From NCBI GenBank assembly GCA_963711035.1, contig CAVQCN010000003.1:398290-462289 (forward strand): DNA of 64,000 nucleotides, given 5' to 3'. Below are positions 12,872 to 58,683 of this stretch, piece by piece (within the stretch, counting starts at the first letter, position 1; the number at the start of each line of letters is the position of its first letter). The translations under genes and the position numbers were made by a program. The DNA comes from an uncultured Chloroflexia bacterium. GTDB lineage: Bacteria; Chloroflexota; Dehalococcoidia; DSTF01; WHTK01. A model generated the notes under the pieces. The model did not search any database, was not told the origin of the DNA, and saw only the letters and a list, made by a program, of their open reading frames with translations.

Positions 12872-12941
12872 AGCGCGCCGCCATCTCGAACGGCGCAGGC
12901 GCTGGTCGGAGCCGGGCCTGGTCGTAGCGCTGTGATAGGGC

Positions 12942-13886
12942 TTACTCGATGATCTTGTTCAACGGGTACTCGACGATACCGTGGGCGCCCGCCTTCTTCA
13001 GCCGGGGCACGATCACGTGAACGAGGTCCTCGAGGACGATCGTCGTGACGTCCACCCACGCCGGGTCGGAGAGCGAGGCGACGGTGGGCTTGTCGAGGGC
13101 GGGCAGGATGGCGAGGACGCTGTCCAGATCGTCTCGCGCGACGTTCATCGAGAGCCAGACCTTGCCTTCGGCCGCGAGCGCGCCGCTGAGCATCAAGGCA
13201 ACGTCCTCGATCTTCTGACGTTTCCAGTCGTCCTGCATGGCCTGCGGGCTGGCAATGAGACGAGGCCTGCTCTCGATGACGGTGTCGATGATGCGGAGAC
13301 CGTTGGCCCGCAGAGAGTTCCCGGTGACCGTCGCCTCCATGATCGCGTCGGCGAGGAGCGGAACTTTGACCTCCGTGGCGCCGTACGAGTACTCGACGAG
13401 GGCGTTGACGCCACGCGCTTCGAGAAACTCTCTTGTCAGCGACACCAGCTCCGTGGCAATCCTCTTGCCTTCGAGGTCGCGCACCTCGTGGACGGGGGAG
13501 TCATTCGGCACACAGAGCACCCAGCGCGTGAAGAAGCCGCTGGTCTTCGAGTTGACCTCGAGGATCTCGACTACGTTTGCTTTGGCCTCGCGAATGAGGT
13601 CCAGGCCCGTGAAGCCCGCGTCGATGAGGCCGTCCTGGATGTAGCGGGGCTGCTCTTGCGGCCTCACCAGCATGCACTCCATTTCGGGGTCGTCGACGCT
13701 GGGATGATAGGAACGGCTGGATACATTCATGTTGTAGCCGGCTTTGCGGAACAAGTCCACAGCCGCCTGCTGCAGGTTGCCGTTGGGAATGGCCAACCGG
13801 ATCCGCCGGGACTCCACGATGCGTTCCTCGTAGAAAAAAGAGCGCCTGCCGAGTGGCAGGCTGCCAGGGTACTGCCTTTCGCACAT
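12942..13886 (-). CDS. hisG: ATP phosphoribosyltransferase, long form
   Basis: ~300 aa with catalytic and C-terminal regulatory domains. The true start is probably a few codons inside the track ORF (RIRLAIPNGNL...). Confidence 0.85.
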   Translation of the reverse strand: MCERQYPGSLPLGRRSFFYEERIVESRRIRLAIPNGNLQQAAVDLFRKAGYNMNVSSRSYHPSVDDPEMECMLVRPQEQPRYIQDGLIDAGFTGLDLIREAKANVVEILEVNSKTSGFFTRWVLCVPNDSPVHEVRDLEGKRIATELVSLTREFLEARGVNALVEYSYGATEVKVPLLADAIMEATVTGNSLRANGLRIIDTVIESRPRLIASPQAMQDDWKRQKIEDVALMLSGALAAEGKVWLSMNVARDDLDSVLAILPALDKPTVASLSDPAWVDVTTIVLEDLVHVIVPRLKKAGAHGIVEYPLNKIIE

Positions 13887-13999
13887 AGTACCGCAGCCCC
13901 TCAGGAGCGTCCAACTGAGGTGACGGTCCGTCGTTGCGGGGAGCGGCAGCGACGAAGCAATCCCGGGCTCGGCGGCGTTATCTCTCAGACGGAGCGTTG

Positions 14000-14037
14000 T
14001 CCGAGGGGAGATTCTTCGCTCCGCTCAGAATGACAGC
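14000..14037 (-). repeat. Copy B of the ~38-nt interspersed repeat (upstream of hisG, downstream of purC)
   Basis: The reverse complement reads TGTCATTCTGAGCGGAGCGAAGAATCTCCCCTCGGAC. Confidence 0.8.
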
Positions 14038-14087
14038 GCTGGTGGCGGCGGCCGGCCTTGCCCGACTGCACGATTGCGGCCGCCGCG

Positions 14088-14987
14088 CTAGAACCGCAGC
14101 AGCTCGCGGCCGGTGAGGCGCCGGTAGGCCTCGTGGTAGCGCTCGCTGGTCTTGAGGACGATGTCGTCGGGAAGGGTGGGCGGCGGCGGCTCGCGGTTCC
14201 AGCCTGAGTCGAGCAGCCAGTTGCGTACGAACTGCTTGTCGAAGCTGGGCTGTGATCGGCCCGTCTCGTACTGGTCGGCGGGCCAGAAGCGGGACGAGTC
14301 CGGCGTCAGCATCTCGTCGATGATGATCGGCTCGCCGTCGACGATGCCGAACTCGAGTTTCGTGTCGGCGATGATGATGCCGCGCTCGCGGGCGTACTGC
14401 AGGGCGTACTTGTAGATCGCCAGCGTGCGGATACGGATGGCGTTGGCGACCTCGGCGCCGACGAGGTCGATCAGCTCATCCGAGCTCATGTTCGTGTCGT
14501 GGCCAACTTCTGCTTTCGTCGTCGGTGTGAACAGCGGCTCCGGGAACGCCTCCGATTCGACCATGCCGGCCGGCATGCGCAGGCCGCAGACGCGCCCCGT
14601 CTCCTGATACTCGGCCCATGCTGAGCCCGTGAGGTAGCCCCGCGCGATGCACTCCACGTCGAGGCGCTGTGCCTTGCGCACGATCGTGCTGCGGCCGAGC
14701 AGCTCCGGCGGCAGCGCGAAGGGGAGCTCGTCTGCCTCGGAGCCGTCGGCGAGGCGCAGGAAGTGATTCGGCACCACGTCCTCGGTGAGCTGGAACCAGA
14801 AGGCAGACATCTGGCTGAGCACGGCGCCCTTGTCCGGGATGCCGTTGGGCAGGATGGAATCGAAAGCGGAGATGCGGTCCGTGGCGACGATCAGCAGGCG
14901 GCCATCGCCGAGGTCGTACGTGTCGCGCACCTTGCCGCGGTATGTGCGGTCGGGCAGCTCGGTGTCAAGCAGGACTTGCGGGCTCAT
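14088..14987 (-). CDS. purC: Phosphoribosylaminoimidazole-succinocarboxamide synthase (SAICAR synthetase)
   Basis: 299 aa; typical PurC N-terminal (YRGKVRDTYDLGDGRLLIVATDRISAFD) and ATP-grasp-like motifs. Confidence 0.9.
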   Translation of the reverse strand: MSPQVLLDTELPDRTYRGKVRDTYDLGDGRLLIVATDRISAFDSILPNGIPDKGAVLSQMSAFWFQLTEDVVPNHFLRLADGSEADELPFALPPELLGRSTIVRKAQRLDVECIARGYLTGSAWAEYQETGRVCGLRMPAGMVESEAFPEPLFTPTTKAEVGHDTNMSSDELIDLVGAEVANAIRIRTLAIYKYALQYARERGIIIADTKLEFGIVDGEPIIIDEMLTPDSSRFWPADQYETGRSQPSFDKQFVRNWLLDSGWNREPPPPTLPDDIVLKTSERYHEAYRRLTGRELLRF

Positions 14988-15777
14988 TGTCGGACACTGC
15001 TTTCTTTGCTTTGAGATCGTAGAACATCAGCGTCGCCGAGACGGCGAGGAACGAAAACGTCGCCAGGTTGGGCAGTGACGAGAACAGGATACCACCGATA
15101 CCCGGTATCGCTGCCTGCAGGATGCCCGCCAGCAGGCTGGTCGGGATGCCGATGACGAGGCCTACCACCGCCGATCGGCCGAAGGTGCGCCACCAGTTGT
15201 CCTTGACCAGCGCTGCGCTGTAGGCGAGCGCATCGCGGCCCTTCTGACCGTCGATCATGATCGCCTGGATCAGGAACAGCCAGCAGATGCCGCGGTGGAT
15301 GGCGAAGACGATGCCCGCACCGATGATGATGGAGGCGAAAACGACGCCAACCCAGCCCAGCGTGACCACGAGAGCCAGCCCCGCGCCGAGACAGCCCAGC
15401 ACGACGAACATGATGATGGCGAGCGCCTTGAACTCCGCCAGCATGAGGTCCGCGAAGTGGTCCTGGGCGGCGTCGAGCGCGTCGCCGACCGAGGTCTCCT
15501 TGCGCTGGTCGAGCTGCAGCAGGCGAAAGCAGACACCGGCCGTCACCAGCTGCTCCGCCGCAAAGAGAAAGGGCAGGCCGCCGAGGAAGATGGCCTCAAT
15601 CAGGACGGTGTTTTCCTGTCTCGGAAGCTGAGCAAGCAGCTGCGTCGCCAGGCTGACGAGCAGTGCCGGCGCCACGATCATGAAGAGCGAGGGCATGTCG
15701 CCGAAGAACATGGCGAACGAGTCCTGGATCAGCTCGCCGAGCGGTCGCTGCCGGTTGAGCAGTGGGCGTGGATTCAT
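14965..15777 (-). CDS. Hypothetical polytopic membrane protein
   Basis: 270 aa with multiple TM segments and no recognisable family. Overlaps the purC start by 23 nt. Confidence 0.5.
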   Translation of the reverse strand: MNPRPLLNRQRPLGELIQDSFAMFFGDMPSLFMIVAPALLVSLATQLLAQLPRQENTVLIEAIFLGGLPFLFAAEQLVTAGVCFRLLQLDQRKETSVGDALDAAQDHFADLMLAEFKALAIIMFVVLGCLGAGLALVVTLGWVGVVFASIIIGAGIVFAIHRGICWLFLIQAIMIDGQKGRDALAYSAALVKDNWWRTFGRSAVVGLVIGIPTSLLAGILQAAIPGIGGILFSSLPNLATFSFLAVSATLMFYDLKAKKAVSDNEPASPA

Positions 15778-15838
15778 GTGCGAGTCTCCCTGCGGATTCT
15801 CGCAGATGCCGGCGGCCGGGGTCGAGGCGGGTTCGGGG

Positions 15839-17194
15839 TCAGGCTTCGAGGAGGCCGACGCGGGCGAAGCTCTTGTCGACCTCGCGGGTGAAGTAGCCGT
15901 AGTCGAAGAGGGCGTCGAGCTCGGCCGGCGTCAGCAGCTTCTGCACGGCGGACTGCTCGCCGATCGTCTCGCGGAAGGGGCGCCGCTCGGCCAGCGCCTG
16001 GTGGGCGGCGTACTGGACAATGGGGTAGGCGGTCTGGCGCGCCATATCCTTCTCGACCAGCGTGAGCAGCACGCGCTGCGAGAAGACGACGCCGTGGGTC
16101 AGATTCATGTTCTCCAGCATGCGCTGCGGATAGACGACCAGCCCCCGCACGATGCCGGTGAACAGCGTCAGCATGTAATCCAGCGCCAGGCAGGAGTCCG
16201 GGATGATGACGCGCTCGACGGACGACTGGCTGATGTCCCGCTCGTGCCAGAGGGCGACATTCTCAAGGGCGGCGTTGGCGTTGGCGCGGAGGATACGGGC
16301 CAGGCCGCAGATGCGCTCGCACTTCTCAGGGTTGCGCTTGTGCGGCATCGAGCTGGAGCCCTGCTGGTGCAGGCCGGAGGTCGAGCCGCCCTCGATGGGG
16401 CGCAGGTGCAGGTCCATGCCGCCGGTGCTGAACGGCTCCTCGGCTTCGCCGACCTCGGTGCGCTGCAGGTGACGGATCTCGGTGGCGAAGCGCTCCAGCG
16501 AGGCGCCGATCAGGGCCAGCGTCTGCAGGTAATGGGCGTGGCGGTCACGCGAGACGATCTGGGTGCTGACCTTGTCGACGCCGAGGCCGATGCGCTCGCA
16601 GACGCGCTCTTCCAGCTCCGGTGGCACCGTCGCGTGGCTACCCACCGGCCCGCTGAGCTTGCCAACGGCGATGTCTGCGCGCGCAGCTTCCAGGCGCTCC
16701 CGGCCGCGGCGCACCTCGTCGAGCCAATTGATCAGCTTGAGGCCGAAAGTGATGGGCTCGGCGTGCATGCCGTGCGTGCGGCCCATGCAGATCGTGTCCT
16801 TGTACTCGAGGGCACGAGAGGCGATCGCCGCGTCGAGCTGCTGCAGGTCTTCGGCGATAAGCTCGGCGGCCTCGACCATGCGCAGGGCGGTGGCCGGGTC
16901 CTCCGTGTCGTACGAGGTGAGGCCGAGGTGCAGCCAGCGCTGCTCCTCGCCCAGGCTGTCGTTCACGGAGCGCAGGAATGCATTCATGTCGTGGTGCATC
17001 TCGCGCTCGTAGCGGTCAATGTCCTCGACACGGAAGGAGGCGTTGCGGGCGATCTTGTCGGCGTCCTCGCGCGGCACGGCTCCGAGGTCGGCCCAGGCCT
17101 GTACGGCCGCGATCTCCACCTTGAGCCAGGAGGCGAACTTGTTCTCCTCCGACCAGATGCGGGCCATTTCGGGACGGGAATATCGGGATATCAC
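15839..17194 (-). CDS. purB: Adenylosuccinate lyase
   Basis: 451 aa; fumarase/lyase class II signature (GSSSMPHKRNP). Confidence 0.9.
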   Translation of the reverse strand: MISRYSRPEMARIWSEENKFASWLKVEIAAVQAWADLGAVPREDADKIARNASFRVEDIDRYEREMHHDMNAFLRSVNDSLGEEQRWLHLGLTSYDTEDPATALRMVEAAELIAEDLQQLDAAIASRALEYKDTICMGRTHGMHAEPITFGLKLINWLDEVRRGRERLEAARADIAVGKLSGPVGSHATVPPELEERVCERIGLGVDKVSTQIVSRDRHAHYLQTLALIGASLERFATEIRHLQRTEVGEAEEPFSTGGMDLHLRPIEGGSTSGLHQQGSSSMPHKRNPEKCERICGLARILRANANAALENVALWHERDISQSSVERVIIPDSCLALDYMLTLFTGIVRGLVVYPQRMLENMNLTHGVVFSQRVLLTLVEKDMARQTAYPIVQYAAHQALAERRPFRETIGEQSAVQKLLTPAELDALFDYGYFTREVDKSFARVGLLEA

Positions 17195-44947: not shown

Positions 44948-46077
44948 CTAGAAGTCCTGCTCGAACTTGCCGGGCTGCACCGAGCCGTAAGCCAGGTCGC
45001 GAGCCATGATCAGCCGCTGGATCTCGGACGGACCTTCGCCGATGCGGCGGATGCGCAGCTCGCGGTACCAGCGTTCGAAGGGCATGTCCTTGGTCATGCC
45101 GTAGCCGCCGTGGATCTGCATCGAGCGGTCGACGACCCGGCCGGCGGCCTCCGTCGCGTACACCTTGGCCATCGCGGCTTCGAAGCGGAAGGGTTCGTTG
45201 TTGTCGAACTTCTCGGCGGCGGTGAGGATCAGCCAGCGCGAGGTGCGGAGGTCGATCTCGTTGTCGACGAGCATCCACTGGATTGCCTGGCGGCTGGCGA
45301 GCGGCTCGCCGAAGGTGACCCGGTTGCGCGCGTACTCGACCGCCATGCGGTGCGCCGCGACGGCGACGCCGATGCCGGCGGCCGCATAGGTGATGCGGTT
45401 ACTGCTGAGACGGGCGTTGGCGTTGGCGAAACCTTCGCCTTCCTTGCCGATGAGGGCGGAAGCGGGCACGCGCATGTCGGTGAACGACAGTTCGGTCGTG
45501 TAGTGCGAGCGCAGCACGTGAATCAGAGCGGCGCACCTCGAACCCAGGGGTGTCGGTGCGTACCTTGAAGGCGCTGATGCTCTCACGGCCTTGCGTATCG
45601 CCGGTGCGGGCGTAGACGGTGCCCCAGTTCGCGGTGTCGGCGCGTGAGTTGAAGACCTTCGAGCCGTTGATCACGTACTCGTCGCCGTCGCGCACGGCGC
45701 GGGTGCGGATGGCTCGGCCGGGGTCGGAGCCGCCGGTAGGCTCCGTCAGGCCGATGAAGCTCTCGCCCGTATACTCACCGTCGCCGCCTTCCTCCTCCTC
45801 AGCCTCGTCGCCGCCAAGGCGGAAGAGGCCGTAGCAGGGGTGGTAGAGGCCAGCGCGGTGCTGCGCCGCCTCCTCGACCATGAACACCTTCGTCTTGACA
45901 TCGAGGCCCTCGGCGCCCGGCAGGCCGGTCGATTCGGCGATGGCGCGCAGACGCTCCTCTTGCTCCTCCGGCAGCTCATAGGCGTCGGCGTCGAGCTCCG
46001 ACTCCTCCAGCGGGACAATCTCCTCCCGCACGAAGCGCCGGATCGTGGCGCAGATCATCTTCTGCTCTTCGGTCATC
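44948..46077 (-). CDS. Acyl-CoA dehydrogenase with apparent frameshift near 45510-45560
   Basis: The N-half (MTEEQKMICATIRRFVREEI...SFIGLTEPTGGSD...YVINGSKVF) and C-half (...TTELSFTDMRVPASALIGKEGEGF...QIHGGYG...) are in adjacent frames. Confidence 0.75.
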
Positions 46078-46361
46078 CGCAGGTCCACGGCTTCATCCTC
46101 TCCTGGGCTCACGTCGGCGTCCTGGAGTGCCCAGGACGCAGGCAACTGCTCGAATCTGAGCAAAGCCCGCTCGAATCTAAATAGTGCTCTCGTCAATGTC
46201 AATGCGGCCCCGAAACAGTTGTTTGGTCGACGCGCCAAAGGCTGCTACTCTTCAATTGACACCACCGGGGACCGGCCCTAGCATTGGGGCGCTTTTCGCC
46301 GGCCCGGTTCCGACGTCATTCGCCGCCTCGAGGTCGGGGCGTTTGCTCTCGGAGGGGATTC

Positions 46362-47512: not shown

Positions 47513-47983
47513 ATGACGAATCAGCAACCCAACGTCCAGACCAAAGAGGGCCAGCAGCAGCTACGCGAGATGGGCATCCGTGTCGTCCCGCAGCCGGACC
47601 AGCTCACCGCGCCGTACTGGGACGCGGCCCGCCGTCACGAGCTGCGTATCCAGCACTGCCGCTCCTGCGGCACATACCAGCATCCGCCGGAGCCGACCTG
47701 CCGAGGCTGTCAGGGCGGCGAGTTTGAGTGGGTGCAGCTCAGCGGCCGTGGCACCGTCTACGCCTTCATCATCGACCACCGGCTGATGGTGCCGGGGTTC
47801 GATGAGCCGTACGTCGTTGCGCAGATTACGCCGGTTGAGACGGACGACAACATGGTGCGCATCACGGCTAACATCAAGGGCTGCGACATCCACGACGTCA
47901 CCGTCGGCATGCCGGTGGAGGTCTTCTTCGAAGACGTGACCAACGAGGTCTCGCTGCCGCAGTTCAGGCCGGTTACCGGATGA
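47513..47983 (+). CDS. Zn-ribbon OB-fold protein (DUF35), thiolase partner
   Basis: 156 aa; CRSCG...C..C zinc ribbon plus OB fold. RBS GAGGAG. Confidence 0.75.
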   Translation: MTNQQPNVQTKEGQQQLREMGIRVVPQPDQLTAPYWDAARRHELRIQHCRSCGTYQHPPEPTCRGCQGGEFEWVQLSGRGTVYAFIIDHRLMVPGFDEPYVVAQITPVETDDNMVRITANIKGCDIHDVTVGMPVEVFFEDVTNEVSLPQFRPVTG

Positions 47984-48510: not shown

Positions 48511-49263
48511 ATGGAAGTTCCGAACCACCACGAAGGACATGATCACGCCAGTCACGGCCATGTCGAGTCGCCAGGGCCCGACCGAGACTGGCAAAGCCAG
48601 GAAGTCGTGGCCGAGTGGTTGCAGCGCGAGGCAGCGCGTGCTCCGGTGAGGCACCGCCAATTCGTCGTGATGCGCGCCCTGATCCCCAAGGCGCCGGACC
48701 AGGAGTTTGCTTACGTCAACATTGGAGCCGGCTCAGGCAACCTTGATGAGGTTCTCCTGACACACTTCAAGCAGGCACGCGCGACGCTGGTGGATGGTTC
48801 CCAGGCAATGCTCGATTCCGCGCGTGAGCGACTCAAACCATTCTCCGATCGCGTGGAGTTCGTGGTTTCGGACTTGTCTCGCCCCGATTGGTTGACTGCG
48901 GTCACCGGCCCATTCGAAGTGGTCGTGTCCAGCTTCGCTGCTCACCATGCCGGCGCCGCCGAACGAGTCCGGGAGCTTTACGCCGAGGTACATGGCCTTC
49001 TCGAGTCAGGCGGCGTCTTTGTGAATCTGGAGTACGTTCGCTCGTCCCGGCCGGACCTGGTTGCTCTTTCTGAATGGGCGGCGAACGATCCGGATGCACA
49101 ACTCAGCGCTGCGACGCCACGACACTCCTTACCGGGCACAATGATCGAGCAGATTGGCTGGCTCTCCGAAGCGGGTTTTGCGACTGCAGACGCGATGTGG
49201 AAGAACCTGAGCGTGGTTTGCTTCTGTGCGCTCAAGGATCAACTGCATCTACCCGAAGCGTAG
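48511..49263 (+). CDS. Class I SAM-dependent methyltransferase
   Basis: 250 aa; VNIGAGSGN SAM-binding motif. Confidence 0.7.
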   Translation: MEVPNHHEGHDHASHGHVESPGPDRDWQSQEVVAEWLQREAARAPVRHRQFVVMRALIPKAPDQEFAYVNIGAGSGNLDEVLLTHFKQARATLVDGSQAMLDSARERLKPFSDRVEFVVSDLSRPDWLTAVTGPFEVVVSSFAAHHAGAAERVRELYAEVHGLLESGGVFVNLEYVRSSRPDLVALSEWAANDPDAQLSAATPRHSLPGTMIEQIGWLSEAGFATADAMWKNLSVVCFCALKDQLHLPEA

Positions 49264-49433: not shown

Positions 49434-49509
49434 GCGGGGGTAGCTCAGTTGGTAGAGCTCCTGCCTTCCAAGCAGGTTGTCGCGGGTTCGAGTCCCGTCC
49501 CCCGCTCCA
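49434..49509 (+). tRNA. tRNA-Gly (anticodon UCC)
   Basis: 76 nt cloverleaf: acceptor GCGGGGG/CCCCCGC, D arm GCTCagttggtaGAGC, anticodon stem CCTGC/GCAGG with loop cuUCCaa, T arm GCGGGttcgagtCCCGT, discriminator U, encoded CCA. Confidence 0.9.
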
Positions 49510-49574
49510 AACATCAAGCAGGCTATCGTTCTTAGATTCAAAGCGTGTCTTGATTGACATTGTGGTTCGCCCAA

Positions 49575-49600
49575 CAACCCGACAGCCTGCTTTTCAAGCG
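49575..49600. repeat. Inverted degenerate copy of the tRNA-Gly 3'-half fragment (AACCCGACAGCCTGCTTTTCAAGCG)
   Basis: Resembles the reverse complement of the CCTTCCAAGCAGGCTGTCGCGGGTT variant found at 54570-54615. A shorter copy (AACCCGACAGCCT) lies at 54476-54488. Confidence 0.5.
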
Positions 49601-49687
49601 CCAGCCTTCCTTCCCAGAGAAGACCTTCGGCTCGTCTGGACGCTCTCTCGAGTGACAGCCTGACTTTCAGGAAGCAGCCCACAGATT

Positions 49688-49706
49688 AGAACACTAGTGC
49701 TATAAT
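49688..49706 (+). promoter_or_regulatory. Candidate LexA/SOS-box-like operator (GAAC-N4-GTGC) abutting a TATAAT -10 hexamer upstream of imuB
   Basis: Sequence AGAACACTAGTGC-TATAAT, 44 nt upstream of the imuB GTG start. One mismatch to the GAAC-N4-GTTC Cheo-type box. Confidence 0.4.
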
Positions 49707-49749
49707 CACCTCGATGCTCCGACCCCGCCCGGAGTGATGGGGCAGCTTT

Positions 49750-50934
49750 GTGCGGATCGCCTTCGTTTCGATTCCTCGATTCCCTTGCGCCGTAGAGGTG
49801 CAGCGTCAGCCTCGGCTGGCTCATGGCCCGCTGATCGTGGGCGACGCGGAGCAACCGAAGCGTGTCTTTGATTGCTCTGAGAGCGCTCGTGAGCAAGGTG
49901 TGCGCTATGGCATGACGATTCGGCAGGCGTTGAGTCGCTGTCAGGAAGCTGAGATCGTGCCCCCGGACCCCGTGCTGTACCGCACTACTTGGGAGTCAGT
50001 GCTCGCCGCATTGGGTGAGGTCAGCCCGGAGGTGGAGGACGAGGAATTAGGCCGCGCTTACGTTAATGTCGAGGGTCTCGGCAGTCACTACCGCGACGAC
50101 GCAGCCCTTGCATCGCATCTCGTCCAGACCGTCCATGATGCTTCGGATCTCGATGCTCGCGTTGGGTTGGCAGAGGGGAAGCTTCCCGCCTTCGCCGTCG
50201 CTACGACGTGTGGACCGCAGGAGAGCCGCATCGTCCCCGCAGGCAGCGAGCGGGAGTTTCTTGCGCCTCTTACGATCCAGATGCTCCCGCTGGAGGCAGA
50301 GGTGGTTTCCCGGCTGCAGCTGCTCGGCCTCGATTGCATCGGCGATGTGGCCGAGCTGACTGTCCCCGAGCTCATGGGCCAGTTCGGCTTCGAGGGTAAG
50401 CGCATCTGGCAGCTTGCGAACGGCATCGATGACGAACCGCTGAGGCCGCGAAAGCTGCCGGAGACACTGCAAGCGACGGCGATGCTCGAATCCGCTGTCG
50501 CCGGCATCGATGTCATGATCGCGATCACCGGTCAGTTGCTCTCGCGTATGCGGCTCTCGCTGGCTGGCCGTGCCGTACGGGACCTCACGGTGCAAGCCGA
50601 GCTCGAATCGGGCCGGAGCTGGCAGCATCGCCTCGTCTTCCGGGAGGCGGTGAGCGAGGACGAGCGCCTGTCCTTCCTGCTGCGCGCCGCCCTCGCGAAC
50701 AACCCACCACCCCAGGCGGTCCGTAGTCTTTCCCTGCGTTTGAGCGGTCTGACGGGAGAGACGGGCAAGCAACTCACCTTGGGGCAGAAGCAACGTCAGC
50801 AGCGACAGCTAGAGGAGGCGATTCGACAACTCAAGACCCGGTACGGGTACTCGCCCGTGTATCGCTGTGTGGAGGTAGAACCATGGTCAGTCATACCGGA
50901 AGATCGTCAGATCCTCGTCGAGTCCGACGCCTGA
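49750..50934 (+). CDS. imuB: ImuB (catalytically inactive Y-family polymerase-like protein of the mutasome cassette)
   Basis: 394 aa with Y-family fold; the catalytic acidic residues are replaced (AFVSIPRF instead of VDMDCFF). HhH region LGLDCIGDVAEL. Immediately upstream of dnaE2. Confidence 0.8.
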   Translation: MRIAFVSIPRFPCAVEVQRQPRLAHGPLIVGDAEQPKRVFDCSESAREQGVRYGMTIRQALSRCQEAEIVPPDPVLYRTTWESVLAALGEVSPEVEDEELGRAYVNVEGLGSHYRDDAALASHLVQTVHDASDLDARVGLAEGKLPAFAVATTCGPQESRIVPAGSEREFLAPLTIQMLPLEAEVVSRLQLLGLDCIGDVAELTVPELMGQFGFEGKRIWQLANGIDDEPLRPRKLPETLQATAMLESAVAGIDVMIAITGQLLSRMRLSLAGRAVRDLTVQAELESGRSWQHRLVFREAVSEDERLSFLLRAALANNPPPQAVRSLSLRLSGLTGETGKQLTLGQKQRQQRQLEEAIRQLKTRYGYSPVYRCVEVEPWSVIPEDRQILVESDA

Positions 50935-51170
50935 AGTCGACTCGGGCGGTCGAGGTCAAGGACGGAGACGACGGTGTGCCGGTGAGCATGCGAGTACACG
51001 GCGTCTGGCAGAACGTCAGCTTGGTGCGCCGTCCCTGGCGCATCGACCAGCACTGGTGGCGCAGCGAGCCGATCAGCCGTCTCTACTACCGTGTCGCGCC
51101 AGATGACGGGCCGGCACTGACCATCTACTACGACTTCAGAACGAAGACTTGGGCGCGGCAGGAGTATTGA
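50883..51170 (+). CDS. Small ORF (95 aa) overlapping the imuB 3' end by 52 nt and ending TGA overlapping the dnaE2 ATG; probably the ImuB C-terminal (DUF4113-like) domain displaced by a frameshift
   Basis: ...RPWRIDQHWWRSEPISRLYYRVAPDDGPALTIYYDFRTKTWARQEY. ImuB is usually ~470-520 aa, and 394+~80 restores that length. Confidence 0.45.
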   Translation: MVSHTGRSSDPRRVRRLKSTRAVEVKDGDDGVPVSMRVHGVWQNVSLVRRPWRIDQHWWRSEPISRLYYRVAPDDGPALTIYYDFRTKTWARQEY

Positions 51171-54100
51171 TGCGTCCCTATCGCGGCCCTGTCTCTGCAG
51201 GCATCATGCGTGGCTGGCCCACGGGCGAGAAGCGTCACCCTACACCCACCGCCGTCGCACGACGTATGCCAGCCGGTCGCTACGTGGAATTGCACTGCCA
51301 TAGTGCCTTTTCCTTGCACCAAGGTACGTCGCGGCCGGAGAACCTGGCCGAAATGGCAGCCGCGCTAGGATACCGTGCGCTCGCCATCACCGACCACGAT
51401 AGCCTCGCCGGCGCCATGCTGTTCGCCCAGACCGCGAAAGAACTGGGGCTGCAGGCGATCATCGGCGCCGAGATTACCCTTGAAAATGAAACCCACCTCA
51501 CCTTGCTCTGCGAATCGCCGCGCGGTTACGCAAACCTCTCACGATTGCTCAGCCGTGCTCACCTCGAAGCCTTGAATCGGGATGAGCCCAGGGTCCCGTT
51601 CGAGTGGCTGTCCGACTATGCCGAGGGACTCATCGCCCTTTCGGGCTGTCGCAAAGGCGAAGTTGCGTCGCTGGCTGAACACGGAGAGCTCATCGCGGCA
51701 CGAGAAGCAGCGACGCGCTATCGCGACGTCTTTGGCCCAGCCAACTTCTTCATCGAACTCCAAGACAATCTGGTCTACGAGGATCAGACCCGCAACGAAC
51801 ACCTCGTCGCCCTGGCACGAGACCTCGGCCTCGGCATCGTGGCGACCAACAACGTTCATTACGCCGTGCGGGAGCAGCACCGCCTGCACGATGTGCTGAC
51901 CGCCGTTCAGCACCACACAAATCTGGAGGAAGCAAGGCCGCACCTTCATGCTAACTCCGAGTTCTACCTCAAGACACCCGCGGAGATGGAGCGCCTGTTT
52001 GCCGAACTACCGGAGGCAATCGAGAACACAGCCCTTATCGCCGAGCGCTGCTCCCGCTTCGATTTGACGCGCGATCTGAGCTACGAATTCCCAGACTTCG
52101 ACTCCGGAGACGGTCGCAGCGCCGACGAGTTTCTGCGTGACGAGTGCTACCGGCTGGCGAAGGAACGCTATGGGACCGTGCTGGGTTCCCTGCCAGGAAA
52201 CGTACAGGAAAGGCTCGACAAAGAGCTCCGGTTAATCCGGTCCAGCCGCCGCGCCGGATTCTTCTTGCGACTGTGGGACATCCTGCGCTACGCCCACGAC
52301 AATGACCTGCCTGTGCGCGGGCGCGGCTCCTCTGTGGGCTCTCTGGTCTGCTACCTGCTCGGCCTGTCCGGCATCGATCCGATTACCTATGAGCTGGCGG
52401 TCGAGCGCTTCCTCAGCGAGGACCGGCCCCAGAGCGACGTGCCGGACGTCGACCTCGATTTCGGGCGTGACGCGCGCGACCGAATGTTCAAGTACGTCTT
52501 CGAGACCTATACGACCGATCGTGCCGCCATGGTCTGCACGTTCATTGAGTATCGCTGGGCCAGCGCTATCCGTGACGTAGGCAAGGCGCTGGGGCTGCCG
52601 GAGAGCCAGGTCGACCACATCGCCAAGCGCATGCACAGCCGGTTCGCCCAGGGGCTGCGATATGAGATGTCGCAGATGCCTGAGTTTGCCGGGCGTATGC
52701 GCTTCCGCATCTGGGAGGAGTTCATCGATCTGGTGGAGCAGATCATCGGCCTACCGCGCCACCTCAGTCAGCACTCCGGTGGGATCATCGTCGCAGCGAA
52801 TCGCATGGACGAACAGGTGCCGCTGCAGCGGACGGCCATGGAGGGGCGCTACATCTGCCAGTGGGACAAAGACTCGATTGCGGATGCAGGCTTCATCAAG
52901 CTCGACTTCCTCGGCTATCCCAGCCTCGATCAGCTCAATCGAGGTCTGCGTTACGTGCGTGAGCGTTATGGCAGGATGGTCGATCCGATGAAGGACATCG
53001 ATCTCGCAGACCAGGAGGTCTACGCGATGATCCAGCGCGGCGACGTCCTCGGCATCGTCCAGATCCAGAGCCGGGCTCAGATCCAGGTGCTATTGCGCAT
53101 CAAGGTCGCCTGTATTCAGGACATGATCATCCAGGTCGCCCTCATCCGCCCCGGTCCGATCCAGGGCGGCGCCGTGCACCCTTACGTCTCGCGCTGCCTA
53201 GGCGAGGAGGAGGTGACGTATGACCATCCTCTGCTCGAACCGTTCCTGGAGGAGACGAAAGGTGTCTTTGTCTATCAGGAGCAGGTGATCCAGGCAGCAA
53301 TGGCGATAGCGGGCTTTACCAGCCTTCAAGCCGACCAGCTTCGGCGTGCGATGAGCCGCAAGCGCTCTCGAGAGGAGATGGAGAAGCATCGCCTGGACTT
53401 CATGGCCGGCGCCGAGCGCAATGGTGTGAACCTGGAGACGGCGAACACGATCTACACCAAGATTCTCGCCTTCGCATCGTTCGGTTTTCCGAAGTCACAC
53501 GCGGCGGCGATGGCGGTGACAGCGTTCCAGGTCGCATGGCTCAAGCGCTACTACCCGGCGGAGTTCTACTGCGCCTTACTCAACGAGCAGCCGATGGGCT
53601 TCTACACGCCTGAGGTCATTGCAAATGATGCCCGCCGCCACGACATCGAGATCCGGCCCGTCGACGTCAACCGCAGCGAGGTGGAGTGCACGATCGAGGA
53701 TAACGTTGAGCTTCCATCCAGGGGCGCTGTGCGATTGGGCTATCGCTACGTCAAGGGCGTGGGGCAGGCATCTTTGAACCGGCTTGAAGCCGAGCGGACG
53801 AATGGACCGTATCGGTCGCTCTGGGACTTCTGGCGGCGCACTCGGTTGAGCCGGGAGGCCATCGAGAACTTGATCCAGGTTGGCGCCTTCGCCTGGACCG
53901 GCCTGCATGAACGATCGTTGCTCTGGCAGCTCGGCACGTTCTATCGGCCGCTGGGTGCTCAATTGCCCCTGGCACTACTCCCAGCAGAGACCACGCCCTC
54001 TCTCGCCGAGCCGGTGCACAACGAGCGCGTTGTTACGGACTTCATGCTCGTTGGCATCGCGGTTCGCGGTCGCATGATGGACCTGGTGCGCGATGGCCTG

Positions 54101-54433
54101 CACGAAGGCGTCACGCCGAGCAACCGCCTCGAAGAGCTGGAGCAGGGTGCGCGGGTGACGGTCGGCGGCCTCGTTGCTGTGCGCCAGTCGCCGGAGACAG
54201 CGAAGGGCTTCGTCTTCCACACCCTGGAGGACGACTACGGGTTGATGAACGTGATCACATCCCCACAACTCGTGAGAGACAAGCGATGGCGCCCCTTGAT
54301 CGAGAGCGCCCCGGCCCTCGTCGTCCACGGCCACATCGAGCGCCACGAGCGCTCCATCAACGTCATCGCCGAGCGCTTCGAGGAGCTCGGCGCCATTCAC
54401 TACGCCGAGAAGCGCGTGCACAACTTCGGGTAG
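51170..54433 (+). CDS. dnaE2: Error-prone DNA polymerase III alpha subunit homolog DnaE2 (ImuC)
   Basis: ~1088 aa from ATG at 51170. PHP domain (YVELHCHSAFSLHQG...ITDHD), pol III alpha catalytic core, OB fold. Shorter than DnaE1 and adjacent to imuB. Confidence 0.9.
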   Translation: MRPYRGPVSAGIMRGWPTGEKRHPTPTAVARRMPAGRYVELHCHSAFSLHQGTSRPENLAEMAAALGYRALAITDHDSLAGAMLFAQTAKELGLQAIIGAEITLENETHLTLLCESPRGYANLSRLLSRAHLEALNRDEPRVPFEWLSDYAEGLIALSGCRKGEVASLAEHGELIAAREAATRYRDVFGPANFFIELQDNLVYEDQTRNEHLVALARDLGLGIVATNNVHYAVREQHRLHDVLTAVQHHTNLEEARPHLHANSEFYLKTPAEMERLFAELPEAIENTALIAERCSRFDLTRDLSYEFPDFDSGDGRSADEFLRDECYRLAKERYGTVLGSLPGNVQERLDKELRLIRSSRRAGFFLRLWDILRYAHDNDLPVRGRGSSVGSLVCYLLGLSGIDPITYELAVERFLSEDRPQSDVPDVDLDFGRDARDRMFKYVFETYTTDRAAMVCTFIEYRWASAIRDVGKALGLPESQVDHIAKRMHSRFAQGLRYEMSQMPEFAGRMRFRIWEEFIDLVEQIIGLPRHLSQHSGGIIVAANRMDEQVPLQRTAMEGRYICQWDKDSIADAGFIKLDFLGYPSLDQLNRGLRYVRERYGRMVDPMKDIDLADQEVYAMIQRGDVLGIVQIQSRAQIQVLLRIKVACIQDMIIQVALIRPGPIQGGAVHPYVSRCLGEEEVTYDHPLLEPFLEETKGVFVYQEQVIQAAMAIAGFTSLQADQLRRAMSRKRSREEMEKHRLDFMAGAERNGVNLETANTIYTKILAFASFGFPKSHAAAMAVTAFQVAWLKRYYPAEFYCALLNEQPMGFYTPEVIANDARRHDIEIRPVDVNRSEVECTIEDNVELPSRGAVRLGYRYVKGVGQASLNRLEAERTNGPYRSLWDFWRRTRLSREAIENLIQVGAFAWTGLHERSLLWQLGTFYRPLGAQLPLALLPAETTPSLAEPVHNERVVTDFMLVGIAVRGRMMDLVRDGLHEGVTPSNRLEELEQGARVTVGGLVAVRQSPETAKGFVFHTLEDDYGLMNVITSPQLVRDKRWRPLIESAPALVVHGHIERHERSINVIAERFEELGAIHYAEKRVHNFG

Positions 54434-54569
54434 AAGCTGCACGCGAAGATTTAACTTCGCTGGTACGGATGCATAAACCCGACAGCCTAACTCTCGCCCT
54501 TAGGGGCACAGGTCGGAGGCGAGTGCAGATTCAGAGGCGTTAACCTTCCTTCGCAGTTGGGTGCCTATC

Positions 54570-54615
54570 CCTTCCAAGCAGGCTGTCGCGGGTTCGAGTC
54601 CCGTCCCCCGCTCCA
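54570..54615 (+). repeat. 46-nt direct repeat of the tRNA-Gly 3' half (anticodon loop to CCA, 1 mismatch); att-like boundary of the imuB-dnaE2 islet
   Basis: CCTTCCAAGCAGGcTGTCGCGGGTTCGAGTCCCGTCCCCCGCTCCA matches tRNA positions 49464-49509. Confidence 0.85.
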
Positions 54616-54772
54616 AATTGCAAATTTGAAATCTGGCTAGACACCAAACACCAACCGGTCCGGAGCCGGTGACCTGCGCCGTCGCGGTGAATCCTCGCGC
54701 GACAATAGTCGACTAACTGCCCCCTGCCATGCTCAGAAAGACTATCCTTGCTACATCGCGGGGGGTATCTTC

Positions 54773-55849
54773 GTGGCTGCAGCCCTCTCCCAGAGCAGTG
54801 AGGAAATATTGCAAACGACCCAGGCTTTCGGCTCAACACGCAACACAATCGCAGATCCTCGACGCATTCATCAGGAAAGCGCATACACGGAACTCAAAGC
54901 CCTCATCAGAGCCAAGGGCCTCTTGGAACGGGAGCCGTCTTACTACCTGGTCCAGGCAGGGGTGACCGCTGGTCTGGTCTTGCTCACGATTGTTCTGCTA
55001 GTGACCGCTCACAGCCTCTCGGTACGACTCCTCACGGCCGTTCTCATGGCCGTAACGTCGGCTCAACTAGGTTTCCTCGGCCATGACCTCGGACACAGAC
55101 AAGTCTTCAAGAAGCCGCTGTATGACGATCTGGTGATGCTTGTGATCACCCCACTCCTGGGGATCCTTCCGAGTTGGTGGATCGACGCTCATAATCGGCA
55201 CCACAGCACGCCAAATGATCTTGAACGTGACCCACACACGACGATCCCTGTACTGGCGTTTTCTGAAGGACAGGTTCGGAGGAAGACGGGGATTTCCCGG
55301 TTTCTCATAAGACAGCAGGCGTATTACTTCTTACCGCTCCTATGCCTCTCAATAGTCGGGACCAAGCTAAACGGCATCGTCCATGTCGCAAGAGGACAAG
55401 CGAAGTATCCTCTTGCTGAGGTCTTCGGGTTTTCCCTTCACGTCGTCCTGTATTCCGGGTTGCTCATCTGGACTATGCCTCTTGCAGATGCATTGCTCGT
55501 CGCGACAGTGCATCACGCTTTGACCGGCTTGTATTTCGGATTGATGTTTGCGCCCAACCACAAAGGCATGCCGACCTTCTCGTCCGCGCAACGACCGGAC
55601 TTTCTGCGTTCTCAGGTGCTAACTAGCCGTAACATACGGCCCAACCCGGTCACCGATTTCCTATATGGAGGCTTGAACTACCAAATCGAGCATCACCTCT
55701 TTCCGAACATGCCTCGCAATCACCTCAAAGCTGCCCAGCCGATCGTACGGTCTTTCTGTCTGGAGCGAGGAATAAGCTACTACGAGACATCGTTCTTGAG
55801 GTCTTACTCAGAGGTCTTCGGTCACCTCAAGAAGGTAGTGGCTGTCTGA
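54773..55849 (+). CDS. Membrane fatty-acid desaturase family protein
   Basis: 358 aa; three His boxes (HDLGH, HNRHH, HHLFP) and TM segments. Confidence 0.8.
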   Translation: MAAALSQSSEEILQTTQAFGSTRNTIADPRRIHQESAYTELKALIRAKGLLEREPSYYLVQAGVTAGLVLLTIVLLVTAHSLSVRLLTAVLMAVTSAQLGFLGHDLGHRQVFKKPLYDDLVMLVITPLLGILPSWWIDAHNRHHSTPNDLERDPHTTIPVLAFSEGQVRRKTGISRFLIRQQAYYFLPLLCLSIVGTKLNGIVHVARGQAKYPLAEVFGFSLHVVLYSGLLIWTMPLADALLVATVHHALTGLYFGLMFAPNHKGMPTFSSAQRPDFLRSQVLTSRNIRPNPVTDFLYGGLNYQIEHHLFPNMPRNHLKAAQPIVRSFCLERGISYYETSFLRSYSEVFGHLKKVVAV

Positions 55850-55972
55850 CTTCTCCAGCCATCTGGGCACGGACTTCACCGCTCCCGGATTCAAAGGGAG
55901 ATATAGCAACTTTTCTCGCGGAAGCAATCGGGGCAGTCTGAGACGGCGGTCCGGCCACGAGGAGAACGAACC

Positions 55973-56847
55973 CTACGGCAGAATCTCGATCTGCATCCGG
56001 CCGAGGCGCTCGGCATCGGCCACCAGCTCGATCTCGGTCACCTTGCCATCCCGGACCGTGAAGCTGAACGCCACCACCGGCCTGCCGCTAGCGGCCCACA
56101 CCCCGCCTGGCACGCCATCGATGAGGGCGAGCTGGGCGGCCTGCGCCTGACCCTTGAACTGGTTCGCCACGGCTGTTGCCCCGTGGATGTCCGAGGTGAT
56201 CCAGCCGTTCCGCCGACCCATTTGGAGCGCCGTCTCGTCAGGCCGTAATACGACGTCCGGATCGAGTACAGCCAGCAGCGCCTGCAAGTCACCGTCGCGC
56301 GAGGCTCTGAAGAACGCGTCCACGATGTCCCGCTGCCGCGCCACGTCCCCGCGCGGCCGTCCTCGGACGCGCCCTGCACCCGTCGGCGGCCACGGCTGGC
56401 GAGCTGGCGGGCTGCAGCAGGCGAGCGGCCGACGATGCCGGCGATTTCATCGAAGGACACGCCGAAGACGTCGTGCAACACGAATGCCACGCGCTCGGCG
56501 GGCGCCAAGCGCTGGAGCACTGCCAGCATGGCCAGTCCCACCGACTCCGAAAGTATCGCCTCGTGCTCTGGGTCAGCAGCATCCGGAATCGATTCGCCGT
56601 CCGGCACCAGCGGCTGCTCGCGCCGAGACCGGCGCGAGCGCAGCATATCCAGGCACACCCGCGACACGACCGTGGTTAGCCAGCCGCTCAGGTTCTCCAC
56701 CTGACTCGTGTCGGCACGGCTCAGCCGGAGCCAGGCTTCCTGCACCGCGTCGTCGGCCTCGCTGGCCGAGCCGAGCAGGCGATACGCCACCGTTTGCAAC
56801 CGTGTGCGGTCAGCCTCGAAGCGTTTCGCCAGCAATTCGTCGTCCAT
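55973..56847 (-). CDS. ECF sigma-70 factor with C-terminal SnoaL-like domain (SigJ-like), apparent frameshift near 56330-56350
   Basis: Sigma2 region (...VQEAWLRLSRAD...) and sigma4 (...ERVAFVLHDVFGVSFDEIAGIVGRSPAAARQLASR) are in one frame. The SnoaL-like C-terminus (MARQRDIVDAFFRASRDGDLQALLAVLDPDVVL...) is in the adjacent frame. Confidence 0.7.
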
Positions 56848-57036
56848 CGGTCACAGTCTCCCGTCTTGTTACGTCATATCACTGACGGCCGAGACGCGGC
56901 CGATGTGACAAAGGCATGATGGCGGGCATCACCAAGGTAGCGCACACGTCCGGTTAGGCGCGCCGTGTGGTACCAGCGAAACGGAGCCGGTCACATTCGC
57001 ACGACGTCACCCGTCAGATCGGTGAAGGAGGACGAC

Positions 57037-57390
57037 ATGCAATTCGTAATGGTTATCTATCACGGGAGCTTCCCTCTGCCGGGGTCGGCTGCTTGGAAGG
57101 CGCTGCCCGAAGCGGAAGAGCAGGCGATCTATGCGGACTACGCAGAGCTCAACAAGACGCCGGGGATCACGTTGCGACTTCCCACCATCGCGCCGGCCAA
57201 GGCCACGACGGTGCAGGTACGGGACGGCAAGGCGGAGGTCAAGGATGGGCCGCATCTTGGCGAGGGCATAGGTGGAGCGTTCGTCTTCGACGCTGAAGAC
57301 CTCGATGCAGCGATCGCGCTGGCTTCCCGCATTCCGCAGGCACGCCTGGGTGGTGCGGTGGAGATCCGGCCCGTCGAGAAGTACTTCTGA
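57037..57390 (+). CDS. YciI-like / DGPF-domain small protein (often partnered with SigJ-type ECF sigma factors)
   Basis: 117 aa from the internal ATG (MQFVMVIYHG...). Confidence 0.5.
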   Translation: MQFVMVIYHGSFPLPGSAAWKALPEAEEQAIYADYAELNKTPGITLRLPTIAPAKATTVQVRDGKAEVKDGPHLGEGIGGAFVFDAEDLDAAIALASRIPQARLGGAVEIRPVEKYF

Positions 57391-57439
57391 GCATATCCGC
57401 TCCTCGTTGAGCCTCAAGTCACTGGGAAGGAATCAGAGC

Positions 57440-57835
57440 ATGAAGATCAAGCTGACCAGCATCTACGTGGACGACCAGGAAAAGGCCCTGCGCTTCTACA
57501 CGGACGTCCTCGGTTTCACCAAGAAGGGTGACTTCACCCAGGGCCCATATCGCTGGCTGACGGTTGCCTCTCCCGAGGAGCCCGATGGCACCGAGCTGCA
57601 GCTGGCGCCGAACGCCAATCCGGCCGCCGAGGCCTACCAGCAGGCGATCTTCGGGCAAGGCCAGCCGGCTGCCATGTTCTACACCAACGACGTTCAGGCC
57701 GACTATGAGCGCATCAAGGCTGCCGGGGCCGAATTCACGATGCCGCCCACCAGCCAGCCCTGGGGATCCATGGCAATGCTCAAGGACACCTGCGGCAATC
57801 TGATCCAGCTGACGCAACTGTCCTGGCAAGCCTAA
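57440..57835 (+). CDS. VOC (glyoxalase/bleomycin-resistance) family protein
   Basis: 131 aa from MKIKLTSIYVDDQEKALRFYTDVLGF... Confidence 0.7.
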   Translation: MKIKLTSIYVDDQEKALRFYTDVLGFTKKGDFTQGPYRWLTVASPEEPDGTELQLAPNANPAAEAYQQAIFGQGQPAAMFYTNDVQADYERIKAAGAEFTMPPTSQPWGSMAMLKDTCGNLIQLTQLSWQA

Positions 57836-57982
57836 CGTCTACTCACCGGCGTCGCCGCAACCGTTGCCGCGGCGGCGCCGAACGACGCAGTATCATCGAA
57901 GAACTGCGCTGAGCCGTCTGGCGATCGAGGATACGACCTGCGTAGACGGCTCGGCGTCCATGAGGGAGAGAGGCCTTTCGTC

Positions 57983-58447
57983 ATGCCCTACACCGTGGAT
58001 TTCACGACCGTCTCGACCGTCGGTCTGGAGTCGTCGCCGGTTGCGGCCGCGCTCGCTGGTCTCCGGGCCAACGAGGCCCGCTACTTCAAGAACAAGTACA
58101 ACCACACCTTCACGGTGGAGCCTGCCAGCAACGCCAAGACGGCCATCGACTGGGTGCACCGGATCCTCAAGGAGGAACGCGACATCGTCATCTCGTCGCC
58201 CCCTCTCGAGGCTACTGCCTTTCAGGTCGAGAACATCCGAATGGCCTACGTCTTCTACGAGAGCGGTCTGTCGATCAACGTGATGTATACCGTCGACGAT
58301 CCCAACAAACGAGCGGTCGGGTTCAAGCTCTCCGACGGGATGGAAATCCCCGCGGAGCTCGCCTCACGGTTCAAATTCGCGAGGCAGAAGTCGAGGCTGG
58401 CGGGAACCATTCGTGGTTCCTACTTCGCCTTCAAGACCGAGTACTGA
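57983..58447 (+). CDS. Hypothetical protein
   Basis: 154 aa, no family recognised. Confidence 0.35.
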   Translation: MPYTVDFTTVSTVGLESSPVAAALAGLRANEARYFKNKYNHTFTVEPASNAKTAIDWVHRILKEERDIVISSPPLEATAFQVENIRMAYVFYESGLSINVMYTVDDPNKRAVGFKLSDGMEIPAELASRFKFARQKSRLAGTIRGSYFAFKTEY

Positions 58448-58683
58448 TCCCGGATCGGCTCTCGTCAGGTCAGCCACTTCGTGCCGGTCCTGTCCCGCTG
58501 CTCATTGGGTGAGCCGGCCGTCTTACCGACATCCGACGGAAGAGTGAGCTTCCCGCAGCACGAGGTGTCGTGGGGAGCCCTATTGTCCCAACGACGCGGC
58601 GAACCTCGACGGAGGCGCCATGTGGCCGAAGGGAGACGACCTTTCCAACTCGACTCGCGTTCATCTTCTGGTGATTGAGCTGG

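Follow-up and report, generated by a model that had tools for sequence, protein, structure and literature searches.

Cis-mobilizable elements (CIMEs) are regarded as decayed integrative and conjugative elements (ICEs) or integrative and mobilizable elements (IMEs), which retain their attL and attR sites and have lost the genes for integration and transfer (PMC5704250, PMC6323972). Error-prone polymerase cassettes of the imuABC type have been reported on mobile elements, namely in the ICEPni2 of Pseudomonas nitroreducens (PMC7466150) and in symbiotic and other plasmids (PMC4151985). More recently, a different mutasome architecture, the so-called 'split ImuB', has been described, in which ImuB-C, a beta-barrel without any relative in the PDB, can stand alone beside an inactive Y-family polymerase (PolY) and DnaE2; this module (DnaE2X-iPolY-ImuB-C-RecA) has no imuA and is predicted to use RecA, not ImuA, and Chloroflexota are absent from the main text of that work (PMC12926913). 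The present analysis deals with a stretch of 64,000 nucleotides (nt) of an uncultured Dehalococcoidia bacterium (contig CAVQCN010000003.1, positions 398,290 to 462,289), hereafter the window, where 5.06 kb of DNA with a single operon of the split-ImuB type lie between an intact tRNA-Gly(UCC) gene and a displaced copy of the 3′ part of the same gene. This bracketed islet fits the definition of a CIME, because attL and attR are retained while integration and transfer genes are absent. With due reserve, we hold it probable that the islet is the integrase-less remnant of an integration at tRNA-Gly, and we infer that the mutasome cassette most likely arrived as cargo of the element, whose integrase would have been lost later.

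The tRNA-Gly repeats and their arms

A single tRNA is called by ARAGORN in the whole window, a tRNA-Gly(UCC) at 49434-49509 of the forward strand, which matches the Rfam family RF00005 with 72.6 bits (gathering score of 29). A repeat search of the window detected a direct repeat of 48 nt (49464-49511 and 54570-54617; 98% identity, 5106 nt from start to start), which corresponds to the final 46 nt of the tRNA plus 2 nt beyond the CCA. On its left, the repeat begins with the base that closes the 5′ strand of the anticodon stem, at the junction of stem and loop (49464), and the sole mismatch between both copies (T49477 versus C54583) falls in the variable loop of the tRNA. The right copy has no tRNA 5′ half upstream, and neither ARAGORN nor Rfam calls a tRNA there. 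The original prediction, made from the sequence by itself, that a 46-nt copy of the tRNA-Gly 3′ part with one mismatch recurs 5.06 kb downstream was therefore correct. The islet and its borders comprise the following features, some of which are discussed further below:

49434-49509 (+), intact tRNA-Gly(UCC) (ARAGORN, Rfam), whose 3′ 46 nt belong to attL
49464-49511 (+), attL core, left copy of the 48-nt repeat (repeat search; same left boundary in 13 metagenome fragments)
49512-49681 (+), left inner arm of ~170 nt, equivalent to a P′ arm, neither cassette nor tRNA (cassette homology begins at 49682-49688)
49688-49706 (+), AGAAC-N4-GTGC box abutting a TATAAT -10 hexamer, putative LexA operator and promoter
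49750-50934 (+), iPolY, predicted inactive Y-family polymerase of 394 aa, similar to the N-terminal part of ImuB (Pfam IMS)
50883-51170 (+), orf95, stand-alone ImuB-C-like protein of 95 aa (homologue profile, structural model)
51170-54433 (+), dnaE2, error-prone C-family polymerase of 1087 aa (NCBIfam NF004225, Pfam)
54436-54569 (+), right inner arm of 134 nt, equivalent to a P arm (homology to the arm of contig L031)
54570-54617 (+), attR core, displaced 3′ part of tRNA-Gly (repeat search; no tRNA call)

A 31-nt section of the repeat, with up to 3 mismatches allowed, occurs exactly twice in the 64 kb, versus 0.00 occurrences expected from shuffled sequences, and no further degenerate copies of at least 75% identity were detected on either strand of the window. 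The presence of exactly two copies rules out a dispersed repeat unrelated to tRNA-Gly, which had been put forward as one of the findings that would speak against an integration. A decayed but complete tRNA at the right fragment was also considered and rejected, as a CAGTTGG heptamer found upstream lies 2 nt out of register and the identity around it is at random level.

Further evidence comes from the Joint Genome Institute (JGI) metagenome contigs, in which a search for the 46-mer, with either base permitted at the variant position, retrieved 46 contigs (L015-L060). Most of them (32/46) carry an intact tRNA-Gly(UCC), whereas 13 lack the 5′ half and one, with the match at the contig end, could not be judged. 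In all 13 fragments the identity with the tRNA breaks off at the base seen in the window or up to 3 nt to its left. About three in ten of the metagenome copies of the tRNA-Gly(UCC) 3′ half (13/45) are thus fragments, all of them beginning at the anticodon loop, and their upstream arms form several families (L017/L028/L045, L023/L040, L030/L039, and L031 with the window). A particularly clear case is provided by L031, with a fragment at 2730-2775, and L058, with an intact tRNA at 1945-1990, which are identical in 93/95 nt downstream of the core and share nothing upstream; they constitute the occupied and the empty site of a sister element. Among the genes adjoining the tRNA fragments are those for a ParB-like protein in L023, a SMODS nucleotidyltransferase in L052 and a DNA methylase in L031, of which the latter two are typical island cargo. 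In another contig (L029), an intact tRNA-Gly with the same core is followed, ~170 nt further on, by the start of a tyrosine integrase (Pfam Phage_integrase, E = 1.4e-21), and an IMG/VR phage contig with a terminase-like open reading frame (ORF) carries, at positions 172-199 of its reverse strand, a 3′ piece of tRNA-Gly(UCC) that begins in the anticodon stem and looks like an attP (L062). A tRNA array of a jumbo phage, found with a shorter core in the phage and viral collections, was set aside as irrelevant. From the 13 fragments with a shared boundary, the L031/L058 pair, the integrase of L029 and the attP-like copy of the phage, it follows that integrative elements in this part of the tree often target tRNA-Gly(UCC), crossing over at the anticodon loop.

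Nucleotide homology to the other copies of the operon is confined to 49682-54435 of the window, from the promoter to the stop codon. Upstream of the fragment in L031 lies a sequence homologous to the right arm of the islet, with an alignment score of 69 versus 25.6 ± 5.8 for shuffled sequences (maximum of 48), or ~7 standard deviations. Short motifs recur in both arms: AACCCGACAGCCT is found at 49576-49588 in the left arm and at 54476-54488 in the right one, and GACAGCCT is present at 49654-49661 in the left arm and, in the right arm, begins 89 nt before the core. The distance from this motif, GACA(G/A)CCT in its general form, to the core is 89 nt in the window, 89 nt in L031 and 87 nt in L052; it corresponds to a portion of the core in inverted orientation, and two more copies occur in the left arm (49581 and 49654). 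The 9-mer CGACAGCCT is more frequent in the window than expected (6 copies versus 1.0). These motifs may be regarded as candidate recombinase-binding sites.

Altogether, the 48-nt repeats are almost certainly an attL/attR pair, as originally proposed; this reading is supported by the boundaries at the anticodon loop and the CCA, by the 13 fragments bounded alike, by the L031/L058 pair and by the homology of the right arm. A tyrosine recombinase would have integrated an element into the anticodon loop of tRNA-Gly(UCC) in the past, leaving attL and attR behind. That there was no integration, and that the repeat comes from a local duplication or gene conversion of the tRNA 3′ half or from mere chance, appears extremely improbable. 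The only points in favour of such an origin are the lack of an integrase and the missing empty site for this host, whereas the null chance expectation, the abrupt end of the identity at the anticodon loop, repeated in 13 independent fragments, and the homology of the sequence upstream of the right fragment to the arm of another element all speak against it.

A split-ImuB cassette between the repeats

The repeats enclose only three genes, all of them on the forward strand, which encode a Y-family polymerase-like protein, the small protein orf95 and DnaE2. The non-coding DNA inside the repeats amounts to ~240 nt on the left and 134 nt on the right (less than 400 nt in sum), and with such a small remainder there is no space for the remnant of an integrase. 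A putative integrase remnant in the left arm was dismissed as noise, as the best phmmer match (E = 0.25, 4.5 bits) runs across the tRNA. Pfam profiles revealed no integrase, excisionase, LexA, RecA or ImuA families among 50 ORFs of the window, and phmmer searches with two integrase seeds gave nothing below E = 0.2 among the window ORFs of at least 90 aa. The reported lack of integrase, excisionase, imuA and lexA holds, then, for the islet and for the 50 ORFs scanned in the 64 kb.

The first gene product (49750-50934) shows a Pfam IMS domain (E = 1.8e-24) and scores far below every Pol IV cutoff in NCBIfam. The catalytic residues of E. coli Pol IV, D8, D103 and E104, align to S7, G101 and R102 of the islet protein, and from this replacement the 394-aa Y-family protein is concluded to be catalytically dead (inactive PolY, iPolY). 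Its C-terminal 60 residues are nearly invariant across four loci, and include the motifs QL(T/L/A)LGQ (QLTLGQ in the window) and LEEAIRQLKTRYGYSPVYR. The latter, invariant in the four loci, resembles the N-terminus of E. coli RecA, LAAALGQIEKQFGKGSIMR, and is a candidate RecA-N-terminus-like motif. The third gene (51170-54433) belongs to the NCBIfam family NF004225, 'error-prone DNA polymerase', with 1010 bits versus a cutoff of 939, and contains the Pfam domains PHP, DNA_pol3_alpha, finger and HHH_6.

Between both, orf95 (50883-51170) has its own GGAGG ribosome-binding site 7 nt before the ATG; its start overlaps the iPolY gene by 52 nt out of frame, and its stop codon overlaps the ATG of dnaE2 (TGATG). 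The close homologues, 110 in number, are nearly all 94-96 aa long, the few named ones come from Dehalococcoidia, and their alignment shows an invariant core, RPWRIDQHWWR...Y..V.....T.Y.D....W.RQEY. A profile of the family run against 1.84 billion cluster representatives retrieved 1775 proteins at E ≤ 1e-3, almost all of them stand-alone and of ~95 aa, and one of the matches is a 483-aa protein with the orf95 domain (E = 3e-14) at residues 403-480, behind an IMS domain. There is a weak match to Pfam DUF6504. The AlphaFold model of orf95 is an all-beta structure of seven strands, with a predicted local distance difference test (pLDDT) score of 84.7, for which a structure search found no relative in the PDB. 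Both the homologue profile and the model indicate that orf95 is a stand-alone ImuB-C-like beta-barrel protein, matching the published description of ImuB-C (PMC12926913). With regard to the junction of the first two genes, the overlap is exactly 52 nt in four genomes (50883-50934 in the window, and 10001-10052 in L001, L003 and L004) and both frames are conserved over it, in a dual-coding stretch that also holds the ribosome-binding site of the second gene. A programmed frameshift that would fuse iPolY and orf95 was considered as well; the overlap contains no slippery heptamer and the GGAGG is strong, and separate translation was preferred.

The operon of the islet has, in sum, the split-ImuB architecture, composed of an inactive PolY, a stand-alone ImuB-C and DnaE2, and not the canonical imuA-imuB-dnaE2 one. 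The original prediction of an imuB-dnaE2 cassette stands as to DnaE2 and a Y-family partner, here an inactive one, but the single ImuB is to be replaced by two separate genes. Neither was the absence of imuA and lexA borne out as the mark of an incomplete cassette: the split-ImuB type has no imuA and is predicted to depend on RecA, so that missing imuA and lexA genes are no sign of truncation. By analogy with the described module (PMC12926913), iPolY, ImuB-C and DnaE2 would form, together with the RecA and the beta-clamp of the host, a translesion polymerase that is mutagenic and induced by DNA damage. Both LexA and RecA would be supplied in trans by the host, which would explain why the islet contains neither imuA nor lexA.

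The operon would have its own promoter, overlapped by a LexA-type box. The sequence AGAAC-N4-GTGC, abutting a TATAAT hexamer (49688-49706), is kept at all five cassette loci that were aligned (the window and L001-L004), and corresponds to a one-mismatch half-site relative to GAAC-N4-GTTC. In Dehalococcoides, the latter has been described as the LexA motif (Fernandez de Henestrosa 2002, as cited in PMC4951493). In view of this putative operator, control of the operon by the LexA of the host, as part of the SOS response, is plausible. Downstream of the box and the TATAAT, the leader of the same five loci shows another conserved stretch, CTCCG(A/G)..CCCGCC.GGAG.

Origin and mobility of the islet

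The same operon was found in five other contigs of Dehalococcoidia, with 75-81% nucleotide identity and each time in a different gene context. In the window, the GC content at third codon positions (GC3) of the cassette genes is 0.73, 0.74 and 0.78, versus 0.882 ± 0.036 in 33 core genes (z = -4.3, -4.0 and -2.8), whereas the cassettes of L001, L004 and L005 agree in GC3 with their respective hosts. The tetranucleotide distance, calculated over 5 kb, peaks at 50-57.5 kb of the window. The cassette is compositionally foreign, and its GC3 is consistent with a horizontal acquisition. A difference in composition between the islet and its flanks was seen only in part: the GC3 of the cassette is below that of the core genes, but the flanks on both sides are atypical too. 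The atypical zone outside the repeats covers 48511-49263, with a methyltransferase, and 54618-58500, with genes for a fatty-acid desaturase, a sigma-70-like protein with a long C-terminal extension, a YCII protein and a glyoxalase. The nearest homologues of the desaturase, beyond its own copy, are at most 64% identical. These flanks may be what is left of an older island that also used this tRNA and has a decayed att site at its distal end.

According to the explanation that we favour, the cassette would have entered horizontally as cargo of an element, followed by the loss of the integrase and of any other genes. The remnant consists of a left arm of ~170 nt, one complete operon and a right arm of 134 nt, and would no longer be able to move by itself. 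The originally suggested gain in an element now devoid of recombinase is in keeping with the anatomy of the att sites, the homology of the arm, the foreign GC3 and the absence of an integrase, while the arrival of the cassette as cargo is a conclusion drawn from these data and not an observation.

Several results, however, weigh against this history. At the five other cassette loci there are no att repeats, no tRNA-derived repeats and no integrases, and the cassette was not found in IMG/VR, PLSDB and phage collections, in searches that included the orf95 profile. Because the five other loci lie outside elements and these collections gave no match, there is no independent case of this cassette as mobile cargo. 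The low GC3 is not confined to the bracketed segment either, as the methyltransferase (GC3 of 0.68) and the desaturase (GC of 0.54) lie outside the repeats. For the left arm, no homologue scoring above shuffled sequences was found among the available loci. The attR/empty-site junction was not found in an exact search of the metagenome contigs; orthologues of the thiolase-like flank gene (L006-L009, in genomes of the Genome Taxonomy Database (GTDB), 67-73% amino acid identity) lose synteny before the tRNA, those of the left-flank methyltransferase (L010-L014, 72-77%) have no adjacent tRNA, and the right-flank desaturase has no close orthologue. Finally, the sequence is a metagenome assembly with apparent frameshifts. 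The host lineage is poorly sampled, with the best relatives of the flank genes at 64-77% identity, and an extra right-flank contig (L063) starts inside the repeat and is uninformative about the empty site. Thus, the empty tRNA-Gly site looked for in related genomes was not found for this host, but exists for the sister element of L031/L058 (93/95 nt).

Two of the loci surveyed deserve a separate comment. In L002, the operon starts ~60 nt after a tRNA-Asp(GUC) (2537-2613) and a terminator-like hairpin; as a second att-bracketed cassette it was rejected as evidence of mobility, for there is no tRNA repeat after dnaE2. In L012, from a relative, a block at 11651-16848, just downstream of the methyltransferase orthologue, contains small ORFs (ERCC4-like and LAGLIDADG-like) and a tyrosine integrase, with no tRNA and no clear direct repeat.

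The absence of att sites, tRNA-derived repeats and integrases from the five other loci would also suit a secondary capture, in which an element decayed at tRNA-Gly and the operon was placed later between the surviving arms, or replaced the interior of the element, so that att sites and cassette would have independent histories. It would agree as well with the homology of the cassette stopping exactly at the promoter and the stop codon, and with the other cargo carried by the arm family of L031 and L052. Such a course of events seems unlikely, though it merits serious consideration: it requires two events where one is enough, no repeats or scars of a second insertion are seen at 49682 or 54435, and the cassette is wholly contained within the att pair, with intact arms on both sides.

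A different possibility is that the islet is still an active hitchhiker, that is, a minimal element made of attP-equivalent arms around an SOS-inducible mutasome, which would spread among Dehalococcoidia by borrowing the integrases of tRNA-Gly(UCC) elements. The integrase, with or without an excisionase, would be encoded at another place in the genome or brought in by a tRNA-Gly element, and would still excise and integrate the islet. Both cores are intact (47/48 nt identical), both arms are kept, with three copies of the GACAGCCT motif at conserved positions, and arms and core together would make an attP of ~350 nt; moreover, elements with an integrase and a phage use the same site, and elements of such a kind are known (PMC5704250, PMC6323972). 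We nevertheless consider an active islet rather improbable. No integrase was found within the 64 kb, and neither a circular junction or empty site nor a second copy of the islet turned up in the collections searched, while the retention of ~150 nt of arm may be a matter of chance. Neither the 46-mer nor the attL junction nor the arm plus core gave any relevant match in the viral, plasmid and phage collections.

A last alternative is an assembly chimera, in which two populations were joined through the shared tRNA-Gly sequence and the islet belongs to a genome other than that of its flanks. The window does come from a metagenome contig, the composition of the islet is unlike that of the core genes, and a short-read contig (L063) that begins inside the repeat shows that the latter breaks k-mer graphs. 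This is very improbable, however, considering that the contig has 794 kb, long-read-style names and indel-type frameshifts, and that such reads would span 5 kb; furthermore, the immediate flanks on both sides are compositionally atypical as well. In any case, an islet in another genome would still need the same two flanking cores, and its biology would be unchanged.

The neighbourhood of the islet in the window is metabolic, with his, pur and pth genes further upstream. A histidinol dehydrogenase gene (11542-12871, reverse strand) and an acyl-CoA dehydrogenase gene (44948-46238, reverse strand) each consist of two overlapping ORFs, one matching the N-terminal and the other the C-terminal part of the Pfam profile. 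A single frameshift per gene seems to be responsible, due to an indel error of the long reads or to a pseudogene, and the cassette of L002 shows breaks of the same kind. A gene of the DUF35/ChsH2-type OB-fold (47590-47983), with clear Pfam matches, has an unusual composition (0.87 and 0.44 GC at first and third codon positions, respectively) and overlaps an antisense ORF with typical GC3, which makes the gene call uncertain.

Comparison with known systems

Error-prone polymerase cassettes raise mutation rates under stress, and therefore their movement between genomes bears on adaptability. Mutasome cassettes on plasmids and on one ICE were already known. To these, the present case adds a tRNA-integrated and integrase-less islet whose sole cargo is a mutasome, in an uncultured, slow-growing environmental lineage, and with the recently described split-ImuB architecture, predicted to depend on RecA, instead of imuABC. 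As it stands, the islet is a well-documented and ordinary genomic islet. If mobilization in trans were true, it would offer a very compact model for the hitchhiking of a mutagenesis function, and if the islet were an active hitchhiker, a module for stress-induced mutagenesis would be behaving as a selfish passenger.

Integrative elements that target tRNA genes were reportedly sorted by Williams, in 2002, into sublocation classes, among them one with the crossover at the anticodon loop. With the elements and genomic islands of this class the islet shares the block of identity from the anticodon loop to the tRNA 3′ end, with a reconstituted tRNA at one end and the displaced 3′ half at the other, as well as the existence of sister elements at the same site (L029, L031, L052 and L062). 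It departs from them in that there is no integrase beside the tRNA and the body has shrunk to a single operon. The CIMEs (PMC5704250, PMC6323972) have in common with the islet the attL and attR at the 3′ end of a tRNA, the absence of integrase, excisionase and transfer genes, the small size and a content made up of cargo only. However, the described CIMEs are mostly from Firmicutes and were recognised beside related ICEs or IMEs, whereas the islet, in an uncultured member of the Dehalococcoidia, lacks a known parent element, tandem partner or mobilization event.

With respect to the cassette, the split-ImuB module (PMC12926913) and the islet coincide in a dead Y-family polymerase, a stand-alone ImuB-C and DnaE2 in one operon, with no imuA, and differ in that the iPolY and ImuB-C genes of the islet share a conserved 52-nt overlap. 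The canonical ImuA(ImuA′)-ImuB-DnaE2 mutasome of Mycobacterium and Proteobacteria shares with it DnaE2, an inactive Y-family partner, the ImuB-C domain and a probable SOS control, but in the islet ImuB is split over two genes, and there is no gene for ImuA or ImuA′ either in the islet or among the scanned ORFs of the window. The motif at the C-terminus of the islet iPolY that is reminiscent of the N-terminus of RecA may be another point of likeness to the split-ImuB module. Lastly, the imuABC cassettes of ICEPni2 (PMC7466150) and of plasmids (PMC4151985) would have in common with the islet the condition of an error-prone polymerase cassette carried as accessory cargo by a horizontally transferred element. 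Those carriers are self-transmissible or complete and harbour the canonical three-gene imuABC, whereas the islet would be a 5-kb integrase-less remnant with a mutasome of the split-ImuB type.

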